DNA of 64,000 bases, taken from NCBI GenBank assembly GCA_964645535.1, contig CAZYCQ010000001.1:60245-124244 (forward strand), in the 5' to 3' direction. Shown here in pieces: positions 3,901-52,568 of this stretch (position 1 is the first letter of the stretch; each line of letters opens with the position of its first letter). Both the position numbers and the translations under genes were made by a program. The stretch comes from an uncultured archaeon. Its GTDB lineage: Archaea > Asgardarchaeota > Heimdallarchaeia > Heimdallarchaeales > Kariarchaeaceae. The notes beneath the pieces were generated by a model. The model saw only the letters and a list, made by a program, of their open reading frames with translations, did no database searches and had not been told where the DNA came from.

Positions 3901-4478
3901 ATCTTTCCATAATTGAACCTTTCCCCCACTCAATTCAGATCCGCTATAAAGAACAGACAATTCTATTTTTAAGGCCATGGAATGGAAGCATGTTTTTCCA
4001 GCCATTAATGATTACTGGAGAACCCAACACATTTGCACAGGTGGATATCGGTGTTGTAGATACTTCTGGCAACATTGCCAATAAGTCAGAACTCATTCAA
4101 TGGAAAGATCTTACACCACCTTCAATCCAAGATTTAGAGGACATCACCATAACTGTGGGTGAAACGAGAGATTTGACATGGACATGGGAAGAAAAATTTG
4201 TTGAAAAAGTAACAATGTACAAAAATGCAGAGATAATTTTTGAGACAACGGAATTTATTTCTTCAATTGAATTTACAGTTGGCGAGGCCAGTCCAGGAAC
4301 AGTGGAATACAAGATAGTAATTGAAGATGCAGGGAACAATACAGCAATCAGTACAGTTAATGTTGCCGTGATCGACATTGTAACCTCAGAAGCCTCAGGT
4401 CAAGCCTTCCTATCATTTGAAATCATCTGGTTTGCAGTCCCCATCATCCTTGCAGGCAGAAAAAGACTTAGGCTTTGA
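954..4478 (+). CDS. Subtilisin-like serine protease (S8 family) with long C-terminal Ig/PKD-like repeats and a C-terminal TM plus basic tail.
   Basis: The catalytic triad motifs are present in order: AVLDTGID (Asp), HGTHVAGIIAG (His) and GTSMAAPHVSGVAAIL (Ser). The C-terminus is ...FLSFEIIWFAVPIILAGRKRLRL. Confidence 0.9.
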   Translation: MDYRIITVFVIALIAIPQNGVGNVPVNDNNLGNFQEYDWDHNKIEDSIEGFFGSGEFLVRTNGPIDWYAYGYKLKYQTGDRSISWIKGKGNNLRILAQNENVVFIEGVKKIEPHLFYSSKQIGVNPGIWDLGYTGSQEMSVAVLDTGIDATHPAFQNKQITWVDLAGVSLSVDGDEYANPVDKGGHGTHVAGIIAGSPTSNLEEGFVGQVPPVSSFQIVKSVSDHQNNIVLNFTIDWGNAGDDNPGNHLTVIATPSNNVGNVVAFLDTDTSGLFQGTLTLSPGEYLIGVANQETNGPNPEGLPYSIKTTIIKDSNEPETGYKNWRGIAPDVNLVAIKVFDDSGNGNTGSLLQGLDWIKNNYDTYNITVVNMSLGTDSISSVIDSEVENLANLGILVVASAGNEGVNANGIGSPGSAPFALTVGAVNRMNEIAYYSSNGDPNVNTVTKPDILAPGGSAAIPGLGDVSGYTAGNGLILSAMPFGQTPFGNALITGKQGTSMAAPHVSGVAAILYQILNEKGELTHSINDVKRVKQVLELSAFEVGNILNGGEKIQGGTQQNPPIDPETKDFVEGWGAINPLAAVSLVLETASPNSPKADELSLENSFIQNSVARKITLSGGISYTFWSTIPQGASVDFILYDGNPDQYGDPVPLVHRNIDASLQEGILNLPVLINQSGEYYYSLKLRDSVNAIDRIHHVVLEDNFVPFINPLSPVPDGYVNQTNLEIRFESMTNQVDASIDGNNIGVISDGYVISGLSQGEHSLSLEERNENTGTKANTTFTFTVDLTLPQLVSNLTSITTDQALLIEYNATDNMGIDFVRARIGNSILAQSNESSGTLTVNPQHLPPGTYDLVVEVFDHAGNVARESAQVTFVHDIFIEGEDLMEVEFADAITLRWNAGSQKPSQFKIFIDDVLVHEENWNGGDIVYSFSPVSLGEYNITVMVINTDGDTATATTIVQVQDTTPPVIHILGDMILDATEPQELNLSIIEPFPHSIQIRYKEQTILFLRPWNGSMFFQPLMITGEPNTFAQVDIGVVDTSGNIANKSELIQWKDLTPPSIQDLEDITITVGETRDLTWTWEEKFVEKVTMYKNAEIIFETTEFISSIEFTVGEASPGTVEYKIVIEDAGNNTAISTVNVAVIDIVTSEASGQAFLSFEIIWFAVPIILAGRKRLRL

Positions 4479-6231
4479 TCCAAACCTCTGTTTTTCCCTC
4501 AAATATTTTGATGATGAACCAACCATCTTCAACCAATGTTTCAAAAAGATCGTCCATTTCAAAATATCGATATCTAGGAAGGACTATGTAATTGTACGTC
4601 CCTTGATTTAACGCAGTTTTTAGCTCAAGCGTATAAGTCGAATTGACCCAATATATGGGAACATCATTATGAAGATAAGTATACGCACCTGTCAGGAACC
4701 ATCTTTCGACAATGATAAGTCCTTCCAAATCATCTTGTTGTCCTACATAGGAGATAGCAGCATTGATATCGGAACCGAATTGGAAAACTGGTGTATAATA
4801 CATGTGAACAAATGATGAGAAAGTGATTGAAAAAATAAAAAGGAAAACTGTTAAATTGTAAATTCCTTGGGGATGAAAATTTGGTATTTTTCCTTTTGGA
4901 ACCTTTTGAAGTTTGGAAAGTACGTTTTCCAAAAATTCCGAAAATAGGAAAATGAACATGCTTATAGCAACAAAGTAAATGACATAAATGTTCATCATGA
5001 ATCTTTCTTCCTTATGGCTTGCAGAATTCCAAAACAACAATCCAGCCCTCCATGGTGTCTCGTACAACAGCCAACCCAAGAAAATGGAGAGCATTAAACG
5101 GACAAATTCCTTGGTAAGGTGGTGAGATGGAAAAAATTGGTCAAATATTTTCCTTCTTCTGAAATACACATTACCCATGAAAAACAGAAAGGATAGGAGA
5201 AGAACAGAAATTAAGCCCAATCCATTTTCTATGACAAGTCTATAGGCATACCAACCAAACGGAGCAACGCCAAAGGAATCGGAATTTCCTTCAAGAACGT
5301 TGAATTTAAACCATTGAACTGGAACAATGCCAAAATCCTGTATTCCTTCATACATGAAAGCATCAATCGACATTCCCACAATCCATCCTCCAAGGGAAGG
5401 GGTCAAAACAACACTAAGATCTTCCAGAAATTGTTCCTTTTTCCCCTCCATAAAGTCAAAAACTTGGTGCACGACTGCCATGGAAAACAAAATAATTAGG
5501 AAATCAATCCTGACGTAGGTTGCAATTCCAAATCCAATGAAATAAACCAATTTTTCCTTTATAGTTTCATCTTCCGATGCGGCGGAAAGTCGTCTTTCAT
5601 AAAAAGTCGCAATTGCATATATGAATATGGGGAGAAAAAAGACATTGAAAAGCGGCCGAGTCGTAATGTAAGCAATTTTCCACCAGATAGCCACAAGGAA
5701 CCCACTTGTATAACCGATTTTTTTGTCTTGACTGATGACATCTCCCAGTCTTTTGGTGGCCGGAATTAGCATGAATGAAATGCAAGCCATTGTCAGCCGA
5801 ATGAGGGGCAATGTGACACTCCAATATGGCAAATGCGAAACCTTGGCAATCCAAAATATTGCCGCAAAGAATAGAGGAATAATCCATGATCTTGCTTTTG
5901 CATAGGATGGCGTATCAGGATTTGAAAGTTGAAATTCAGGAGGAACAAAACCATAACCATAAACAATATAATGACCCATTTCTAGTGATTGAAAAATTTC
6001 ATCAGGATGATATATCCCCGTTCCAGTTAAAGCATAAAAAATCCTCAAAATCAATCCTAAAACTACACCAATGTAGTATAATTTTCTGAATACACTGACA
6101 TCGATTTCATTGATGAAATTTAGGTAGTGCTTTGATCGGTTAGCCATCAAAAAACCTGACGTAATCATCAATTTATAGCTTTTTTCATTACCCAAGATAT
6201 CCCATATGAAAATGGGAAAATTTGGTTTCAT
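4468..6231 (-). CDS. Polytopic membrane glycosyltransferase, possibly GT22 (ALG9/ALG12/PIG-B-like mannosyltransferase).
   Basis: More than 10 predicted TM helices. The N-terminal motif YHPDEIFQSLEMGHYIVYGYGF resembles the HPDE.FQ signature of Glyco_transf_22 as recalled from memory, not from a search. Confidence 0.45.
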   Translation of the reverse strand: MKPNFPIFIWDILGNEKSYKLMITSGFLMANRSKHYLNFINEIDVSVFRKLYYIGVVLGLILRIFYALTGTGIYHPDEIFQSLEMGHYIVYGYGFVPPEFQLSNPDTPSYAKARSWIIPLFFAAIFWIAKVSHLPYWSVTLPLIRLTMACISFMLIPATKRLGDVISQDKKIGYTSGFLVAIWWKIAYITTRPLFNVFFLPIFIYAIATFYERRLSAASEDETIKEKLVYFIGFGIATYVRIDFLIILFSMAVVHQVFDFMEGKKEQFLEDLSVVLTPSLGGWIVGMSIDAFMYEGIQDFGIVPVQWFKFNVLEGNSDSFGVAPFGWYAYRLVIENGLGLISVLLLSFLFFMGNVYFRRRKIFDQFFPSHHLTKEFVRLMLSIFLGWLLYETPWRAGLLFWNSASHKEERFMMNIYVIYFVAISMFIFLFSEFLENVLSKLQKVPKGKIPNFHPQGIYNLTVFLFIFSITFSSFVHMYYTPVFQFGSDINAAISYVGQQDDLEGLIIVERWFLTGAYTYLHNDVPIYWVNSTYTLELKTALNQGTYNYIVLPRYRYFEMDDLFETLVEDGWFIIKIFEGKTEVWIKA

Positions 6232-12671: not shown

Positions 12672-14000
12672 ATGCTCAATTTCCGTTTGGGATTAGATGA
12701 CACAGACAATCCAGAGGGAGGATGCACAACCTATACCTTGACAAAAATAATTGATGCATTATCAAAAAAAGATCCAAAATTTACACTATTGGATTTCCCA
12801 AAATTGATACGATTGAATCCGAATGTCCCATATAAAACGAGAGGAAATGGAGCATTGGCGTTGCATGGACAAACCAACCTTTCTTTGAAAGAAGTGGAGA
12901 AAATTGTCCAACAGATCATAGAAAAGGATACTAGTACATGGCAAAAAGATAGTCGCACTGAGCCAAGCTATATTCTGATAGATGAAAAGGATGTTATTGA
13001 GAATTCTGAATTTTATTGGTCAGCACTCAGATCTCTTAAACATCCTGATGAAATAACCTCATTGCTGAAAAATTCCAAACATTGGTCGAGAAACGACAAT
13101 CGAAGCTTAGTAGGAAGTTATGCAGCAATTATTGCAGACCTATCGGAAGATTTCACTTATGAACTAATTGCTTACAGAAAACCAGAAAATTATGGAAGGA
13201 AGAGAGAATTCAATGAAAAATCATTGAAATCACAAATAATGGAAAACAGGGATATGTTGTTCTCAAACTATGACTTTATTGAAGATAGGGAATTGATTGC
13301 CCCTAGTGGACCAGATCCAGTATTTTGTGGAATTAGGGGAGAAGATCCAAGAATATTGGTTCAGGTTTTCAAAAACCTCGACATTGCGGAATCATTGGAA
13401 GGGTATACGATCTTCAAAACCAATCAGGGAACCGGACATCATTTGAAGAGGCCACATCATTCATTTCTTCCCAATTCAGTTCATACGGGAACCTATAGGT
13501 TAAGAGAGAACCCAATGATTTTGAAAGGAGGACATGTTAAACTTAAGTGCAGAGATGTTTACAAGGCAAGATCTGTAGATCTAATGGTTTTTGAGCCTAC
13601 CAAGACAATAGTGAAAACTGCTCAAAAGTTGAGGAAAGATGACATCATTCACATTCTTGGAGGGGTGAAACAAAATGACTTTGGAATTTCAATAGCTGTT
13701 GAAGAATTGTTTGTCATTCACCTTGCAGAGCAGATTAAAATCGAACCACCGATTTGCATTAATTGTAACAAAAGAATGACAAGTGCAGGCAGGTTCAAGG
13801 GATACAAATGCAGGAATTGCGGATACAAAATGATGGCAGGCATTCCCAAAAAACAGAAACGACCAAAAATCACAGCATTTTCCAGATTGCTTCCTGTAGC
13901 TTCAGCACAAAGACATCTTACAAAACCATATGAAAGGTACGGAAGAAAACCAGTCACCATATCCCCCCATCATTTGAAGGATGTAAGAGTAATATTTTGA
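12672..14000 (+). CDS. tiaS: tRNA(Ile2) 2-agmatinylcytidine synthetase TiaS.
   Basis: The N-terminus LGLDDTDNPEGGCTTYTL matches the TiaS GIDDTDS..GMCTTY motif. A C-terminal zinc ribbon CINCN...CRNCG is present. Confidence 0.7.
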   Translation: MLNFRLGLDDTDNPEGGCTTYTLTKIIDALSKKDPKFTLLDFPKLIRLNPNVPYKTRGNGALALHGQTNLSLKEVEKIVQQIIEKDTSTWQKDSRTEPSYILIDEKDVIENSEFYWSALRSLKHPDEITSLLKNSKHWSRNDNRSLVGSYAAIIADLSEDFTYELIAYRKPENYGRKREFNEKSLKSQIMENRDMLFSNYDFIEDRELIAPSGPDPVFCGIRGEDPRILVQVFKNLDIAESLEGYTIFKTNQGTGHHLKRPHHSFLPNSVHTGTYRLRENPMILKGGHVKLKCRDVYKARSVDLMVFEPTKTIVKTAQKLRKDDIIHILGGVKQNDFGISIAVEELFVIHLAEQIKIEPPICINCNKRMTSAGRFKGYKCRNCGYKMMAGIPKKQKRPKITAFSRLLPVASAQRHLTKPYERYGRKPVTISPHHLKDVRVIF

Positions 14001-18555: not shown

Positions 18556-18661
18556 GTAAAATTTCACAAAAAAAATCAACTTTTTTATCACTTCCAGAAT
18601 TTTTACACACGAGTGCTTAAATAGTGACAATTGCATATATAAACATAACACCAGAGAAAAA

Positions 18662-18680
18662 GTACCACCAACGGTGGTAC
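18662..18680. promoter_or_regulatory. Perfect 19-bp palindrome GTACCACC-AAC-GGTGGTAC 16 nt upstream of the TFB start codon.
   Basis: Directly visible in the sequence: 8-bp arms with a 3-nt spacer. Confidence 0.5.
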
Positions 18681-18695
18681 ATTTGGGTGATTATC

Positions 18696-19667
18696 ATGAA
18701 GGAAACATGTTCTGATTGTGGCAGCACAAAAATCATTGAACGCTATCGTGAGGGAACTCTTGTATGCGGTGACTGTGGACTTGTAATTGATCGTATAATC
18801 GACACAAGTTCAGAAATAAGAAGTTCCATCAGTTCTACAGGAACCGTGATTGAAAGGACAGGCAGCCCCATTTCTAACCTGCGACCGGATCTTGGGTTCT
18901 CAACTGAGATTGGAAATCAATCAAGGGATGCCTATGGATCCAAATTGACCGTATTGACCAGAGAGAGAATGAGAAGACTCAGGTGGTTGAACTCACGGAC
19001 ATCGAAATCTGAGATTAGAAATTTGAGAGTGGCACTGAGAGAGCTCAAACGTCTGGCTTCTGCACTTCAAATTTCTCAGGACACTGCATCAACTGCATCG
19101 ATGTATTACAGGAAAGCACTTAAGGCAAAGTTAATTCGTGGACGCTCAATTAATTCAATGATAGCGGCAGCCGTCTATTTAGCCGCACGAAAGCACAATT
19201 TCGCAATTGTCATCAAGGATTTGGAAGAGGTAAGCACTGTCCCCAAGAAAATCATTGCTCGATGCATGCGGGTCTATATGCAGGAATTGAACATCAAACC
19301 AGAACCAACCAATCCTGAGATGATGGTGTCTCGATTGGCAAGTAAGTTGGACATTACCCCAGCAACTCAGAAAGAAGCAATCAAGATCCTCAGACAAACA
19401 AGGAACAAAAGATTGGATATGGGCAAATCACCTATGTCAATTGCTGCTGCCGCGATTTACTTGGCTTGCCTTCGAACTGGTGAACGAAGAACACAGCAGA
19501 TGGTGGCACAGGCCGCAATGACAACACCAGTAACCTTGAGAAACCGTTATCGAGAAATTTCAGAAGCATTGACCATTAATGTCGAAGTGAAAAGAGGAGC
19601 CGCTGCAACACCAGTATATTTCAAATCACCATACAAGAAAGAAAAATCAATTTCAAAGAAAGATTAA
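18696..19667 (+). CDS. tfb: Transcription initiation factor IIB (TFB).
   Basis: N-terminal zinc ribbon CSDCG...CGDCG followed by two cyclin-fold repeats. The likely start is MKETCSDCG at 18696, not the upstream ORF start at 18624. Confidence 0.9.
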   Translation: MKETCSDCGSTKIIERYREGTLVCGDCGLVIDRIIDTSSEIRSSISSTGTVIERTGSPISNLRPDLGFSTEIGNQSRDAYGSKLTVLTRERMRRLRWLNSRTSKSEIRNLRVALRELKRLASALQISQDTASTASMYYRKALKAKLIRGRSINSMIAAAVYLAARKHNFAIVIKDLEEVSTVPKKIIARCMRVYMQELNIKPEPTNPEMMVSRLASKLDITPATQKEAIKILRQTRNKRLDMGKSPMSIAAAAIYLACLRTGERRTQQMVAQAAMTTPVTLRNRYREISEALTINVEVKRGAAATPVYFKSPYKKEKSISKKD

Positions 19668-27549: not shown

Positions 27550-28734
27550 GTGATGTTTGAGGGAGGAATCTTCTCAACCGATAGAAACCTGAATTTTGGA
27601 GGGACAGTCCATGGTTCAAATGAAACAGAGTCTAAAATCATGGATCAATACAGAATTGTTATTGTTGGATACACAAAATCGTTTTCGCAGAATCCAAAGT
27701 TGTTCAAGTTCAATGAATGGAAACCCAACATATTCAAGCAATTCAAGAAAATTCTTTTCATGGGGATTAAGAGGAGGAGAATTAAGACCTCAACCATACC
27801 GAAATCCAAGCGAATTAGAATTGAAGGCGGAACAATTGAAATCGATTCAACCATCAAGGCAGTGAGTTTAGAAATTCATAATTCGAAGATCATGGTCAAT
27901 AATCACATTAGATCAGCTAGCCTGAAACATCTCGAATTGGTTAATGTAGACATTGACTTTGAATTCCCGTTTTTCAATCTCTTCCCCAATGTCCATACAT
28001 TGCATCTTGACAACATACAAATCTCGAGGAATTCGGGATTAATAGATTTACCCTCTTTAAAATTCATAGAGATCGTAAATTTAGAATTACCATGGGATCT
28101 AAGTTTTCAGCATTTGCCATTGAAAAGATTGACCATGGTCAATTCCAAATCTCAAAAAATCCCTCCACTCCCAAGGAAAATCAAGACAGTCAGCATTGTG
28201 GATTGCAGGGGGTTGATCGTTTCCAAAACCCTCTTGGATAAAAAAATTGCATACCTTTTATCCAACAGGAATGTCATATATCCATCACACTTATTAAGAA
28301 TCTCACCAATTTTTGAATCAATCTGCTGGAGTTGGGTCGATTTACCCCAACTAATCAGATTTCTTGAGTTTCTTTCAGCGAACCTTCAACCTTCTACCAG
28401 AAATGGACAAAAAAAACAATTGATCAATTCCATTCATATGATCAGAAGGGATTTATTTCTGGTCAAGAACCGAAAACCAAGAAAGGACAGATATCCAAGT
28501 TTTGGGGAAATATTTATCCTGCAATCAAAAAATACTCCAGAAAGCCTTACTCTGTACCTATTCTATGATTATGATGAAGAAAGTCTTCCTGTTGTCATGA
28601 TCAAATTCAAGAATATAGAAATGATGGATTTGATCAATCTATTCTATAAGGCAGACTTTGTTGAAACAACAGAGCAGTGTTATTGGGAACGTGATTCTCA
28701 GGAGAAAACTCTTAAAGCACCATGTCATGAATAA
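27550..28734 (+). CDS. Hypothetical protein with a leucine-rich-repeat-like central region.
   Basis: Successive L..L.L.N...I repeats: LKHLELVNVDIDF, VHTLHLDNIQISRNSGL, LPSLKFIEIVNLELP, LPLKRLTMVNS and IKTVSIVDCRGL. The start may be the Met at about 27640. Confidence 0.45.
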   Translation: MMFEGGIFSTDRNLNFGGTVHGSNETESKIMDQYRIVIVGYTKSFSQNPKLFKFNEWKPNIFKQFKKILFMGIKRRRIKTSTIPKSKRIRIEGGTIEIDSTIKAVSLEIHNSKIMVNNHIRSASLKHLELVNVDIDFEFPFFNLFPNVHTLHLDNIQISRNSGLIDLPSLKFIEIVNLELPWDLSFQHLPLKRLTMVNSKSQKIPPLPRKIKTVSIVDCRGLIVSKTLLDKKIAYLLSNRNVIYPSHLLRISPIFESICWSWVDLPQLIRFLEFLSANLQPSTRNGQKKQLINSIHMIRRDLFLVKNRKPRKDRYPSFGEIFILQSKNTPESLTLYLFYDYDEESLPVVMIKFKNIEMMDLINLFYKADFVETTEQCYWERDSQEKTLKAPCHE

Positions 28735-28739
28735 CTTAA

Positions 28740-28840
28740 GGGCTTGTGGTGAAGTGGAATCACACTGGCCTTCGGAGCCAGCGTCCCGGGTTCGAACCAG
28801 ACTATCTTGCGGGATAGTTGCGGAAGTCCCGGCAAGCCCT
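28740..28840 (+). tRNA. tRNA-Arg (anticodon TCG) with a roughly 30-nt non-canonical intron in the T-arm.
   Basis: Acceptor stem GGGCTTG/CAAGCCC. D-stem GTGA/TCAC with loop AGTGGAA. Anticodon stem CTGGC/GCCAG with loop CTTCGGA. T-stem CCGGG (28786-90) pairs with CCCGG (28828-32). The T-loop TTCGAAC is followed by a 30-nt insert (28798-28827) carrying its own hairpin ACTATC..GATAGT. This region is GC-rich in an AT-rich genome. Confidence 0.7.
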
Positions 28841-28975
28841 CTTCCAAGTTTTCATGGATTTGAGTATGTATCCATAGAATTATTATTGCAAATCATGAAA
28901 GTAATTTGGCGATGACGAAAAAACCCCAGAAGGAGCCTTTTGGCGATGAATTCCACACGACAATTCCGAGCCATT

Positions 28976-29623
28976 TCAACTGATATACTTGATTGCCATA
29001 AGGGAAAGGACTTCTCCGGCATTCTTGATTTTGGCAATGATGGACTGTGCTCGTTTATGCATATTCTCCAATGCTGCAAATTGTTTCCAATCCTGCGATT
29101 TTTGGAAGTATTCAGCTTCCAGTTGCATTCCTTTTTCCATCACCTCATCTCGACTGTTTTCAATCTTTTCAACAAGGTCGATGGCATTGTCGAAACTTGA
29201 ATAGACCTCTTTTATTGCTTGGGAAAGTGATTCTGATGTTGATCGTATGGTTTCAGAAATGAATGCACCTCTTTCTGCAAAATCAGTGGGCAGGAATTTC
29301 CCATATTCTTTTACAGTCCTTGCTGTCCGTGCATATTCATCAAGGACATCATCAATCCGCCTCAAGAGTTTGGCACGGTCAAGAGCAAGATAAGGGACGG
29401 ACTGCTGTTTGGCGAAATGCTCATTCAAACGATCCCTTATTTTATCTCCCTCTTCCTCCACTTCAAGTACCCTATCGATTTTTTCCTGAACCGGCTCTGG
29501 TTGAAAAATAATTTCTCCGATGATTTGACCAGCAGTCTGAAGTAAGTCTGCGAGTTTAAAGAATTGTTCCTTTTCTTCTTTTTTGTTCATATGGCTATAC
29601 CTCCGAATTCGACAAGTTTCCAA
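28976..29623 (-). CDS. PhoU-like phosphate transport regulator (DUF47/TIGR00153 family) paired with the PiT transporter.
   Basis: Helical protein of 215 aa whose gene overlaps the PiT gene on the same strand, which is the typical pit-associated arrangement. Confidence 0.7.
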   Translation of the reverse strand: METCRIRRYSHMNKKEEKEQFFKLADLLQTAGQIIGEIIFQPEPVQEKIDRVLEVEEEGDKIRDRLNEHFAKQQSVPYLALDRAKLLRRIDDVLDEYARTARTVKEYGKFLPTDFAERGAFISETIRSTSESLSQAIKEVYSSFDNAIDLVEKIENSRDEVMEKGMQLEAEYFQKSQDWKQFAALENMHKRAQSIIAKIKNAGEVLSLMAIKYIS

Positions 29624-46518: not shown

Positions 46519-46989
46519 ATGGTTGAGCTCGACAAAATTAAGTTTGTAACCATTAAATACGTAACTGAAGAACAGGAGCTAGTTTACGAAGCAGTTAGGA
46601 GAGTGCTACCAGAACAGGTGGCAAAGTCCATAAGCCTAAAGAATTTTTCGAAGATGAGCGTTATTGGGCAGTACGGAGATCCCATGCTTCTTATTGAGCT
46701 CGTCATCAATAAAAAGCCGAAAGAAGTCATAAAACATATCTTTTCCAAACTCACCGAGACTGAAAAAAAACGTCTCTTACACGAATTCAACACGAGATTC
46801 GATCCTGAAACAACAACCTTCTTCTTTAGGTTAGATAAATTCTCTCCACTCAAAGATGATCTTTATCTCAATGATGGATCTGATGTGATAAAAGTTGAGC
46901 TCAAGTTTAAGGTGTATGGAAAATTGGATCCTGAAAAGATAAAAGAAATACTCCAGTCGCTAATGGGTTTAGAGGAAGATGGAATATGA
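46519..46989 (+). CDS. Hypothetical protein immediately upstream of the RNase P subunit genes.
   Basis: 156-aa ORF that overlaps the start of rpp30 (ATGA). Confidence 0.4.
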   Translation: MVELDKIKFVTIKYVTEEQELVYEAVRRVLPEQVAKSISLKNFSKMSVIGQYGDPMLLIELVINKKPKEVIKHIFSKLTETEKKRLLHEFNTRFDPETTTFFFRLDKFSPLKDDLYLNDGSDVIKVELKFKVYGKLDPEKIKEILQSLMGLEEDGI

Positions 46990-47633
46990 GAGGGATTGAA
47001 TGGAGCCCATTTGTATGGAAAAATCAACTCCATATAGCAGAAAAACTTGGGATAACAGCCTGTGCAATAGAAGGAGACTTGCCAAAGAGAACCATACTTC
47101 ATTGTTTTAGAAGGAAAACACTTTCAGAAATCAATGGAAAAGTTCAGAAAAAAAATCTGAAAAAAACGGTTGCTGGTCTCAGGTCGGATTTTGATTGGGT
47201 TTCCATTGAGCCCTCTTCAATTAAAGTTCTGGTCGATGCAATTGCCTTTCCTCAGGTTGATGCAATCATGTTAACTGCATCGTCACCATTGAAATTGGCT
47301 CACCAAAAATACCTTGCTCTCCTTCGTGATCATTCAAAAATTCTTGAAATTGATTTGAATCCGTTTTTCTCATACAGGTCAAAGCAGAAAGAAATCACAA
47401 AGTTGCTCAAAATACTGAACCTAGTCCGTCAAAAACCGCCACAAGTAGTTTTTACGATCTCAGATTCAAATCCTTTTTCATTTCGCAGATACAGAAATCT
47501 CCAATCGTTGGGAAATTCCCTAGGGATTGATATCAATTATTCATCACTTCGTCCGTTTATTGAAAACATTAAACGGAACAGGAAACGGAGAGAAGGAAAA
47601 CTAATCTCAGGAGACATTGAGGTAGATAATTAA
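46986..47633 (+). CDS. rnp3: RNase P protein component 3 (Rpp30/Rnp3).
   Basis: VDAIMLTASSPLKLAHQKYLALLRDHSKILEIDLNPFF and VVFTISDSNPFSFRRYRNLQSLGNSLGID parallel the VDAI...RPLL and RRFLTSSA...DVRYPRDLISLG regions of archaeal Rpp30. Confidence 0.7.
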   Translation: MRGIEWSPFVWKNQLHIAEKLGITACAIEGDLPKRTILHCFRRKTLSEINGKVQKKNLKKTVAGLRSDFDWVSIEPSSIKVLVDAIAFPQVDAIMLTASSPLKLAHQKYLALLRDHSKILEIDLNPFFSYRSKQKEITKLLKILNLVRQKPPQVVFTISDSNPFSFRRYRNLQSLGNSLGIDINYSSLRPFIENIKRNRKRREGKLISGDIEVDN

Positions 47634-51968: not shown

Positions 51969-52568
51969 TTACTTAAACTTTTGTGCTTTTTCTCTCTTTG
52001 TTTGCTGATTATGTTTTTCGATGAAATATTCGATCATGTGGTTAAAGGCTTTTTCAATATTTTCTCCTGTTTTAGCGGAGGTGTAATAAAATTTTATTGG
52101 ATTCCCTGTCCGCAGGGAAAGTGCTTCAACTTTTTTCTCGATTTCTTCCTCTGAGACTGCCGCTTGTTTCTCACCATTTTGGATAAGATCCACCTTGTTC
52201 CCCAAAACGATGATGGGAACTTTCATTTCATGGCTATAACTGATTTCATTGAGGAATTCTTCAAGAAAACCATCAAGATCATCAAAGGATTTGCGGTCAG
52301 TAATATCAAAAACAATGAAAGCTCCATCTGATGCGCTGTAATATAATTTTCGTACATGATGAAAGGTTTCTTGACCGGCTATGTCCCATATCTGGAGAAT
52401 AAATTCACCCAAAGGATGGTCGATACGTTTAACCGCAAAGTCAGCGCCAATAGTTAGGGAGTAATTATGTTGAAATTGTTCACCGAAGTAATTTCTTCTG
52501 ATACTGGTCTTGCCAACCCGTTTCCTTCCTATGAGAATTACCTTGAATTGTTTTGGAATGTTCAACAC
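51969..52568 (-). CDS. Rab-like small GTPase (Ras superfamily).
   Basis: G1 GRKRVGKTS; switch I TIGADF (RabF1 IGVDF); G3 ILQIWDIAGQE (RabF2 KLQIWDTAGQE); YYSASDGAFIVFDITDRKSF (Rab YYRGA.G...V.D.T...SF); G4 GNKVDL; G5 YTSAKTGENI. No C-terminal Cys prenylation motif. Confidence 0.8.
   Translation of the reverse strand: MLNIPKQFKVILIGRKRVGKTSIRRNYFGEQFQHNYSLTIGADFAVKRIDHPLGEFILQIWDIAGQETFHHVRKLYYSASDGAFIVFDITDRKSFDDLDGFLEEFLNEISYSHEMKVPIIVLGNKVDLIQNGEKQAAVSEEEIEKKVEALSLRTGNPIKFYYTSAKTGENIEKAFNHMIEYFIEKHNQQTKREKAQKFK

Follow-up and report, generated by a model that had tools for sequence, protein, structure and literature searches.

The locus and its neighbours

The window, that is, the whole 64-kb stretch of DNA that was analysed, contains one tRNA gene. 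It is encoded at 28740-28840 (+), corresponds to tRNA-Arg(UCG) and reads, segment by segment and with an insert in brackets, GGGCTTG TG GTGA AGTGGAA TCAC A CTGGC CTTCGGA GCCAG CGTC CCGGG TTCGAA (CCAGACTATCTTGCGGGATAGTTGCGGAAG) T CCCGG CAAGCCC T. When these 30 nt are removed from the T-loop a perfect cloverleaf is obtained, and only then are the acceptor and T stems complete. Every stem is present, as the preliminary description of this DNA had stated (acceptor 7/7, D 4/4, anticodon 5/5, T 5/5). The predicted mature T-loop after excision is the consensus UUCGAAU, and the predicted spliced product has 71 nt including the discriminator U73, or 74 nt once CCA is added, instead of the 70-nt mature species expected before. 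The 12-nt 3′ segment CCCGGCAAGCCC occurs a single time in the 64-kb window and, with one mismatch allowed, was matched on average 0.10 times in window shuffles. Taking into account this uniqueness, we consider the insert and the downstream stem halves to be real and not a product of chance. The features of the gene and the neighbouring genes are collected in Table 1. Judging by its gene content, which is Asgard-like, the host is an archaeon. An identical protein locates the region on contig RFHV01000376.1 of the MAG GCA_003696825.1, named Methanobacteriota/Euryarchaeota archaeon at NCBI; this label is at odds with the gene content and with the synteny to a Heimdallarchaeota MAG, both of which point to an Asgard archaeon. 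EndA and RtcB were both absent from the genes of the 64-kb window.

Table 1. Position of the tRNA-Arg(UCG) gene elements and of other genes in the window.
Feature	Position	Strand	Remarks
Alg9-like glycosyltransferase, GT22	4468-6231		typical of Asgard genomes
TiaS, tRNA-Ile2 agmatidine synthetase	12672-14000	+	archaeal hallmark, tRNA maturation
TFB	18624-19667		archaeal hallmark
Candidate archaeal promoter	28701-28717	+	purine-rich BRE-like GGAGAAAAC, then TATA-like TCTTAAAG
5′ exon, tRNA positions 1-59	28740-28796	+	acceptor 5′ strand, D arm, anticodon arm, 4-nt variable loop
5′ exon end	upstream of 28797	+	T-stem 5′ strand, T-loop U54-A59
Acceptor stem	GGGCTTG 28740-46 / CAAGCCC 28833-39	+	7/7 Watson-Crick
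D stem	GTGA 28749-52 / TCAC 28760-63	+	4/4 pairs
Anticodon stem	CTGGC 28765-69 / GCCAG 28777-81	+	5/5 pairs
Anticodon loop CTTCGGA	anticodon TCG 28772-74	+	
T stem	CCGGG 28786-90 / CCCGG 28828-32	+	5/5 Watson-Crick
Central BHB helix H, exon strand	28791-28794	+	U54 U55 C56 G57
5′ bulge	28795-28797	+	A58 A59 / C(i1); 5′ splice site 28796/28797 predicted from the BHB rule
BHB intron, position 59/60	28797-28826	+	30 nt, CCAGACTATCTTGCGGGATAGTTGCGGAAG; removal restores cloverleaf; orthologues with same site and length
Intron hairpin h′	28798-28820	+	C28798-G28820, A28799 bulged, 8 bp 28800-07/28812-19, loop UGCG
Central BHB helix H, intron strand	28821-28824	+	CGGA
3′ bulge	28825-28827	+	A G / U60; predicted 3′ splice site 28826/28827
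3′ exon	28827-28840	+	U60, CCCGG, CAAGCCC, discriminator U73; CCA not encoded
T-run, candidate archaeal terminator	28849-28852	+	just 3′ of the gene
HEAT-repeat protein, 1107 aa	36753-40076		typical of Asgard genomes
Small PF01877 "RNA binding" protein	46519-46989	+	adjoins Rpp30
RNase P Rpp30 subunit	46986-47633	+	archaeal hallmark, tRNA maturation
Ras-family GTPase	51969-52568		typical of Asgard genomes
Ribosomal protein L15e; archaeal-type PheRS alpha and beta	in window		archaeal hallmarks
Thioredoxin/OST3-OST6 domain protein	in window		typical of Asgard genomes

The TATA-like element of the candidate promoter has its centre some 27 nt ahead of the mature 5′ end. In the four orthologous genes described below (4/4) a block, GGAAAAnTnCTTAAA, is found about 22-36 nt upstream of the tRNA while the flanks diverge, and T-rich tracts follow the discriminator, also in 4/4. 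The upstream block and the T tracts resemble, respectively, a BRE/TATA promoter of archaeal type and an oligo-T terminator. An ORF of 394 aa without Pfam match (27550-28734, +) stops 5 nt short of the tRNA gene and would thus contain the putative tRNA promoter within its 3′ end; in the orthologous loci L033 and L093 it is missing from the region ahead of the tRNA.

It was also possible to see a conserved intergenic block at 28907-28976 (+), 67 nt past the tRNA gene and directly adjoining the stop codon of PhoU. Its terminal stem is UGGC/GCCA, TTGGCGATGA is present twice, as C and C′ boxes, and the D box reads CCGA (CUGA in L033). Rfam gave a full-length match to snoU54, a C/D-box family, with 22.7 bits, below the gathering score of 35. 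Both L090 and L033 conserve the block, L093 does not, and the reading as a small ORF is disfavoured by a 1-nt indel in L033. We regard the block as a candidate C/D box sRNA of archaeal type that may share a transcript with the tRNA.

Bulge-helix-bulge geometry of the insert

According to the bulge-helix-bulge (BHB) rule, calibrated on the canonical 37/38 site, the cut falls after the second nucleotide of either 3-nt bulge. At that site the last six bases of the 5′ exon are four of the helix and two of the bulge; a single bulge base opens the 3′ exon, and directly after it comes the partner strand of the stem located immediately 5′ of the helix. We transferred this geometry to the T arm, where it predicts a helix H formed by U54-G57, a bulge A58 A59/i1 (i1 being the first intron base), an intron whose last six bases are four complementary to UUCG and two of the bulge, and N60, with the T-stem 3′ strand right behind it, as the base that opens the 3′ exon. 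The window sequence fits this prediction exactly. Considering this fit together with the comparison with relatives, the intron corresponds to 28797-28826, at position 59/60, with T-loop UUCGAAU. The insert had been placed before at 28798-28827: its length of 30 nt stands and its boundaries are shifted by 1 nt, T28827 becoming position 60; with those boundaries the T-loop would be UUCGAAC, versus the consensus UUCGAAU with the corrected ones. The assignment of the site itself, 59/60, agrees with both the BHB geometry and the relatives.

The helix H has 4 bp, UUCG/CGGA (U-A, U.G, C-G, and G-C), and the outer helix h is the T stem. The archaeal BHB motif has been described as two 3-nt bulges with a 4-bp helix between them, located at the exon-intron boundaries, and the substrate ranges have been given (PMC6379350). 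In the window, a BHB fold at the exon-intron junctions was looked for and it is formed; the junctions are near-strict hBHBh′, with 3-nt bulges AAC and AGU. The hairpin ACTATC/GATAGT noticed within the insert was confirmed at 28801-06/28813-18. The helix h′ of the window is not perfectly stacked on the bulge, and either one bulged A or a register shift is needed; the alternative register gives 3 contiguous pairs right at the bulges.

Folding of the whole precursor with RNAfold gave a minimum of -41.6 kcal/mol, in which the cloverleaf is misfolded, versus -37.1 kcal/mol for the cloverleaf plus BHB. Considering that the global fold misfolds the cloverleaf, it was taken as uninformative and local folding was used instead. 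Locally, the BHB conformer of the window had -15.8 kcal/mol and the minimum-energy fold -17.8 kcal/mol, the former being 2.0 above the latter, and in the orthologues L033 and L090 the BHB is the minimum-energy fold.

Two other kinds of insert were considered and rejected. A group I intron of a tRNA contains a ribozyme core of >200 nt and is usually located in the anticodon loop; the insert has 30 nt, lies in the T-loop and gives no intron match in Rfam, so it is not a self-splicing group I intron. A C/D guide of the kind found in the tRNA-Trp intron carries a C box RUGAUGA and a D box CUGA within the intron. The window intron has no such boxes and its 30 nt are too short for a guide; GAUGA-like strings were seen in the introns of three orthologues, in positions that are not conserved.

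Conservation and distribution of the 59/60 intron

The neighbouring PhoU_div protein was used as a handle, and the contigs of its relatives were examined for the tRNA gene. Two syntenic orthologues were found in this way, in L090 (L090-92) and L093 (L093-95), and the third is in L033. L033, titled Candidatus Heimdallarchaeota, is the closest species-representative genome having the same tRNA beside the same PiT-PhoU operon, with amino-acid identities to the window of 83% for PiT and 63% for PhoU; the PhoU identity is 77% in L090-92 and 70% in L093-95. The distant PhoU homologues (38-48% identity, L096-L103) had no adjacent tRNA. A metagenome scan with a 20-mer of the 5′ half gave L089, an unrelated tRNA, as the sole match and no extra orthologues.

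The exons are identical to those of the window in 69-71 of 71 positions (97-100%), with 71/71 in L090 and L093, and the exon of L033 differs only by a compensated change of a C-G pair to U-A in the anticodon stem. The introns of all four genes have 30 nt and occupy the same site, and just 17-20 of the 30 nt (57-67%) are identical. The 3′ stretch 28827-28840 is invariant among the orthologues, and 28797-28810 is the least conserved part. When the cloverleaf-plus-BHB was imposed on the four-sequence alignment, 92.9% of the cells were paired, compared with 30-52% in a control with the partners slid by 1-3 columns. Five pairs changed on both sides in this alignment, four of them in h′. Across the orthologues the helix H is 93.8% paired, with one pair changed from G.U to A-U; L093 has a U54xU mismatch in H, which results in a relaxed motif. 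Frozen exons next to an insert that drifts while keeping its structure are what would be expected of a functional spliced gene, and they argue against a pseudogene.

The distribution was explored in 185,579 species-representative genomes with one pattern, restricted to the UCG anticodon: the UCG anticodon loop, GGGTTCGAA, a gap of 6-36 nt, YGRA, NNN, and CCC. The scan yielded 87 stretches, and every match was scored under an intronless and an intron gene model. All the bacterial matches had 5/5 and 7/7 stems without an intron, being chance downstream matches that serve as an internal control. At 37 archaeal loci the 5/5 and 7/7 stems were reached only with a 59/60 intron; judged by their titles, these belong to Thermoplasmata, Methanomassiliicoccales, Woesearchaeota, Nanoarchaeia, Micrarchaeota, Heimdallarchaeota, and Ca. 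Culexmicrobium. At ten further loci, of DPANN type, the acceptor stem reached 7/7 once a second insert, in the D-arm region, was allowed, which gives 47 further archaeal genes altogether. In these ten (L011, L012, L017, L024, L031, L040, L042, L054, L069, and L077) a perfect partner for the acceptor strand does not appear until 46-111 nt upstream of the anticodon loop, and the D-arm-region insert measures about 15-40 nt, or about 80 nt in L077. Some archaeal chance matches are intronless (e.g., L062, L078, and L081), so both the intron-bearing and the intronless states exist within phyla.

The complementarity of the H helix in the 47 scan loci is imposed by the pattern and does not count as independent evidence. 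T60, whose position was free in the pattern, is invariant in 38/38 intron-bearing homologues. Neither the first intron base, which among the 38 homologues can be A, C, G, or T, nor the pairing of h′ is imposed by the pattern: the contiguous h′ pairing at the bulges had a mean of 4.1 bp in the 38 homologues versus 0.8 in the chance matches and 0.76 in shuffled introns. Mini-introns of 13 nt, in L068 and L075, are of hBH type, without h′.

Many Thermoplasmata showed a strict hBHBh′ intron at 59/60 of tRNA-Arg(UCG) with a conserved UCGCG/CGCGA h′ helix (L008, L019, L020, L025-L027, L043, L048, L049, L051, L057, L059, L067, and L088). According to reports, cluster II euryarchaea possess no EndA other than the narrow-specificity alpha′2 form, which would nevertheless accept a strict BHB outside the canonical site.

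Readings of the locus and known systems

The locus is very probably a functional archaeal tRNA-Arg(UCG) gene with one 30-nt intron, spliced by proteins, between positions 59 and 60. The archaeal, BHB-type nature of the intron had been proposed already, and it was borne out by junctions that fold with the correct geometry, by the archaeal gene content and by orthologues that keep position, length and pairing. The idea that T-arm introns are among the rarer positions was overstated: 59/60 is a site already listed (PMC4090602, PMC3239211), and the scan adds 47 other archaeal genomes with an intron there in the same isoacceptor.

Three other readings were weighed. A 30-nt insertion could have inactivated the gene, leaving a pseudogene, mobile-element or integration scar that is never spliced, and it is known that tRNA 3′ halves are common integration targets (PMC4033280). 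This is very unlikely here: the identity of the exons is 100% where that of the neighbouring PhoU has fallen to 70-77%, which shows strong purifying selection on them, and the BHB pairing in the insert has been kept by means of compensatory changes. Besides, neither an integrase near the tRNA nor a duplication of its 3′ segment was found, and the intron occurs only once in the window even with up to 3 mismatches allowed. The same architecture is present in 47 other genomes.

The possibility that the gene is an intronless 71-nt tRNA-Arg(TCG) at 28740-28810, with a coincidental downstream complementarity, comes from the gene finders themselves. ARAGORN and Rfam both call an intronless gene ending at 28809/28810, in Rfam with 35.3 bits, above the gathering score of 29. 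ARAGORN gave an intronless call for the intact gene and a flawless cloverleaf when the spliced sequence was the input. However, the intronless call needs 4 non-standard pairs in Rfam, divided equally between the acceptor and T stems, and the ARAGORN drawing is alike. The supposed 3′ half, 28797-28810, is the very part that varies most among the orthologues, while 28827-28840 does not vary, and ARAGORN found no tRNA in L090-L095, whose introns bear no chance resemblance to a 3′ half. Nor would chance be expected to place a perfect 12-nt complement 30 nt downstream, and we give this reading hardly any credit. Equally hard to credit is a mature RNA that keeps the 30 nt, as an enlarged T-loop or an additional arm, and works as a structurally unusual tRNA, since the retained insert would destroy the conserved T-loop/D-loop interaction, its sequence is unconstrained except for the pairing needed by the BHB, and its geometry matches exactly that of EndA substrates.

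If the gene is spliced, as we favour, a series of steps can be proposed, in which cleavage, ligation and the enzymes involved are inferred. In the precursor, the T stem would be extended by the 4-bp helix between U54-G57 and the CGGA of the intron; the 3-nt bulges AA/C and AG/U would flank this helix, and the intron hairpin would close its far side, resulting in hBHBh′. EndA would then cut after the second base of each bulge. The Asgard enzyme is reported to be of the broad-specificity (alpha-beta)2 type, with an L1 loop. A ligase of the RtcB type would join the exons and probably circularise the intron. The T-loop UUCGAAU could form at that point, open to the usual modifications, and CCA would be added.

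Most likely the intron is simply tolerated, with no function of its own: its sequence changes rapidly, and the upkeep of the BHB would be its sole constraint. Alternatively, the 59/60 intron of tRNA-Arg(UCG) could be old and position-specific, kept or repeatedly regained across Asgard, Thermoplasmatota, DPANN, and Culexarchaeia-type lineages and retained for a function, which we consider unlikely. The scan covered this anticodon only, and its results fit ancestry and convergence alike. Candidate functions under such retention would be, for example, interrupting the T-arm/acceptor sequence targeted by integrases, or delaying T-loop modification and core folding until splicing.

The locus is a new instance of a well-described phenomenon, and it leaves the knowledge of tRNA splicing unchanged. 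What it adds is a further T-loop intron, clean and validated by comparison, from the archaeal lineage that stands closest to eukaryotes, and a case in which the exons are frozen and the intron sequence drifts under purely structural constraint. It also has a practical side. Finders in bacterial mode mis-call the gene, with a wrong intronless 3′ half in this window, or miss it: no tRNA was reported in three orthologues, and ARAGORN gave none in L090-L095. Without BHB-aware tools, therefore, the codon table of an Asgard MAG can seem less complete than it is.

In the literature library that was searched, no description of a 59/60 intron specifically in tRNA-Arg(UCG) was found. The site is among the listed non-canonical archaeal intron sites (PMC4090602), and introns at 59/60 were described in pre-tRNA-Cys(GCA) and pre-tRNA-Pro(GGG) of ARMAN-2 (Ca. 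Micrarchaeum) (Fujishima et al. 2011, PMC3239211). Both systems share the T-loop site, BHB or relaxed BHB junctions and a short intron. They differ in isoacceptor and phylum, the Cys intron of ARMAN-2 is of hBH type and the Pro gene has a second intron at 53/54; the ARMAN-2 enzyme is an epsilon2 EndA, versus the (alpha-beta)2 reported for Asgard. T-arm insertions removed from the precursor, as predicted here, are also known from nucleomorphs and Cyanidioschyzon merolae; these are eukaryotic and often only 3-24 nt long, and the splicing mechanism of the shortest is unresolved (PMC4090602).

The introns of Thermoproteales and Thaumarchaeota (Sugahara 2008; PMC8450103) are likewise of BHB type, spliced by proteins, located outside 37/38 and routinely missed by non-archaeal finders. 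Unlike those genes with multiple introns, the present one has a single intron and no sign of transposition (no similar intron in the window). With tRNAscan-SE 2.0, 673 non-canonical introns were counted in 10,372 archaeal tRNA genes (PMC8450103). Within the Asgard superphylum, Atabeyarchaeia and Freyarchaeia have introns in 92-95% of their tRNA genes, often at non-canonical positions (PMC11291895); the superphylum and the non-canonical positions are common to both cases, although that figure is genome-wide and here there is one tRNA gene in the window.

By comparison with the canonical 37/38 intron, the T-arm intron repeats the same plan: a 5-bp stem runs into a 4-bp helix that takes the first four loop bases, two 3-nt bulges are present, and the cleavage, predicted here, falls after the second bulge base. 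The 59/60 site is the exact T-arm counterpart of 37/38, with the difference that, being located in the T arm, it keeps the T-loop/D-loop tertiary core from forming before splicing.
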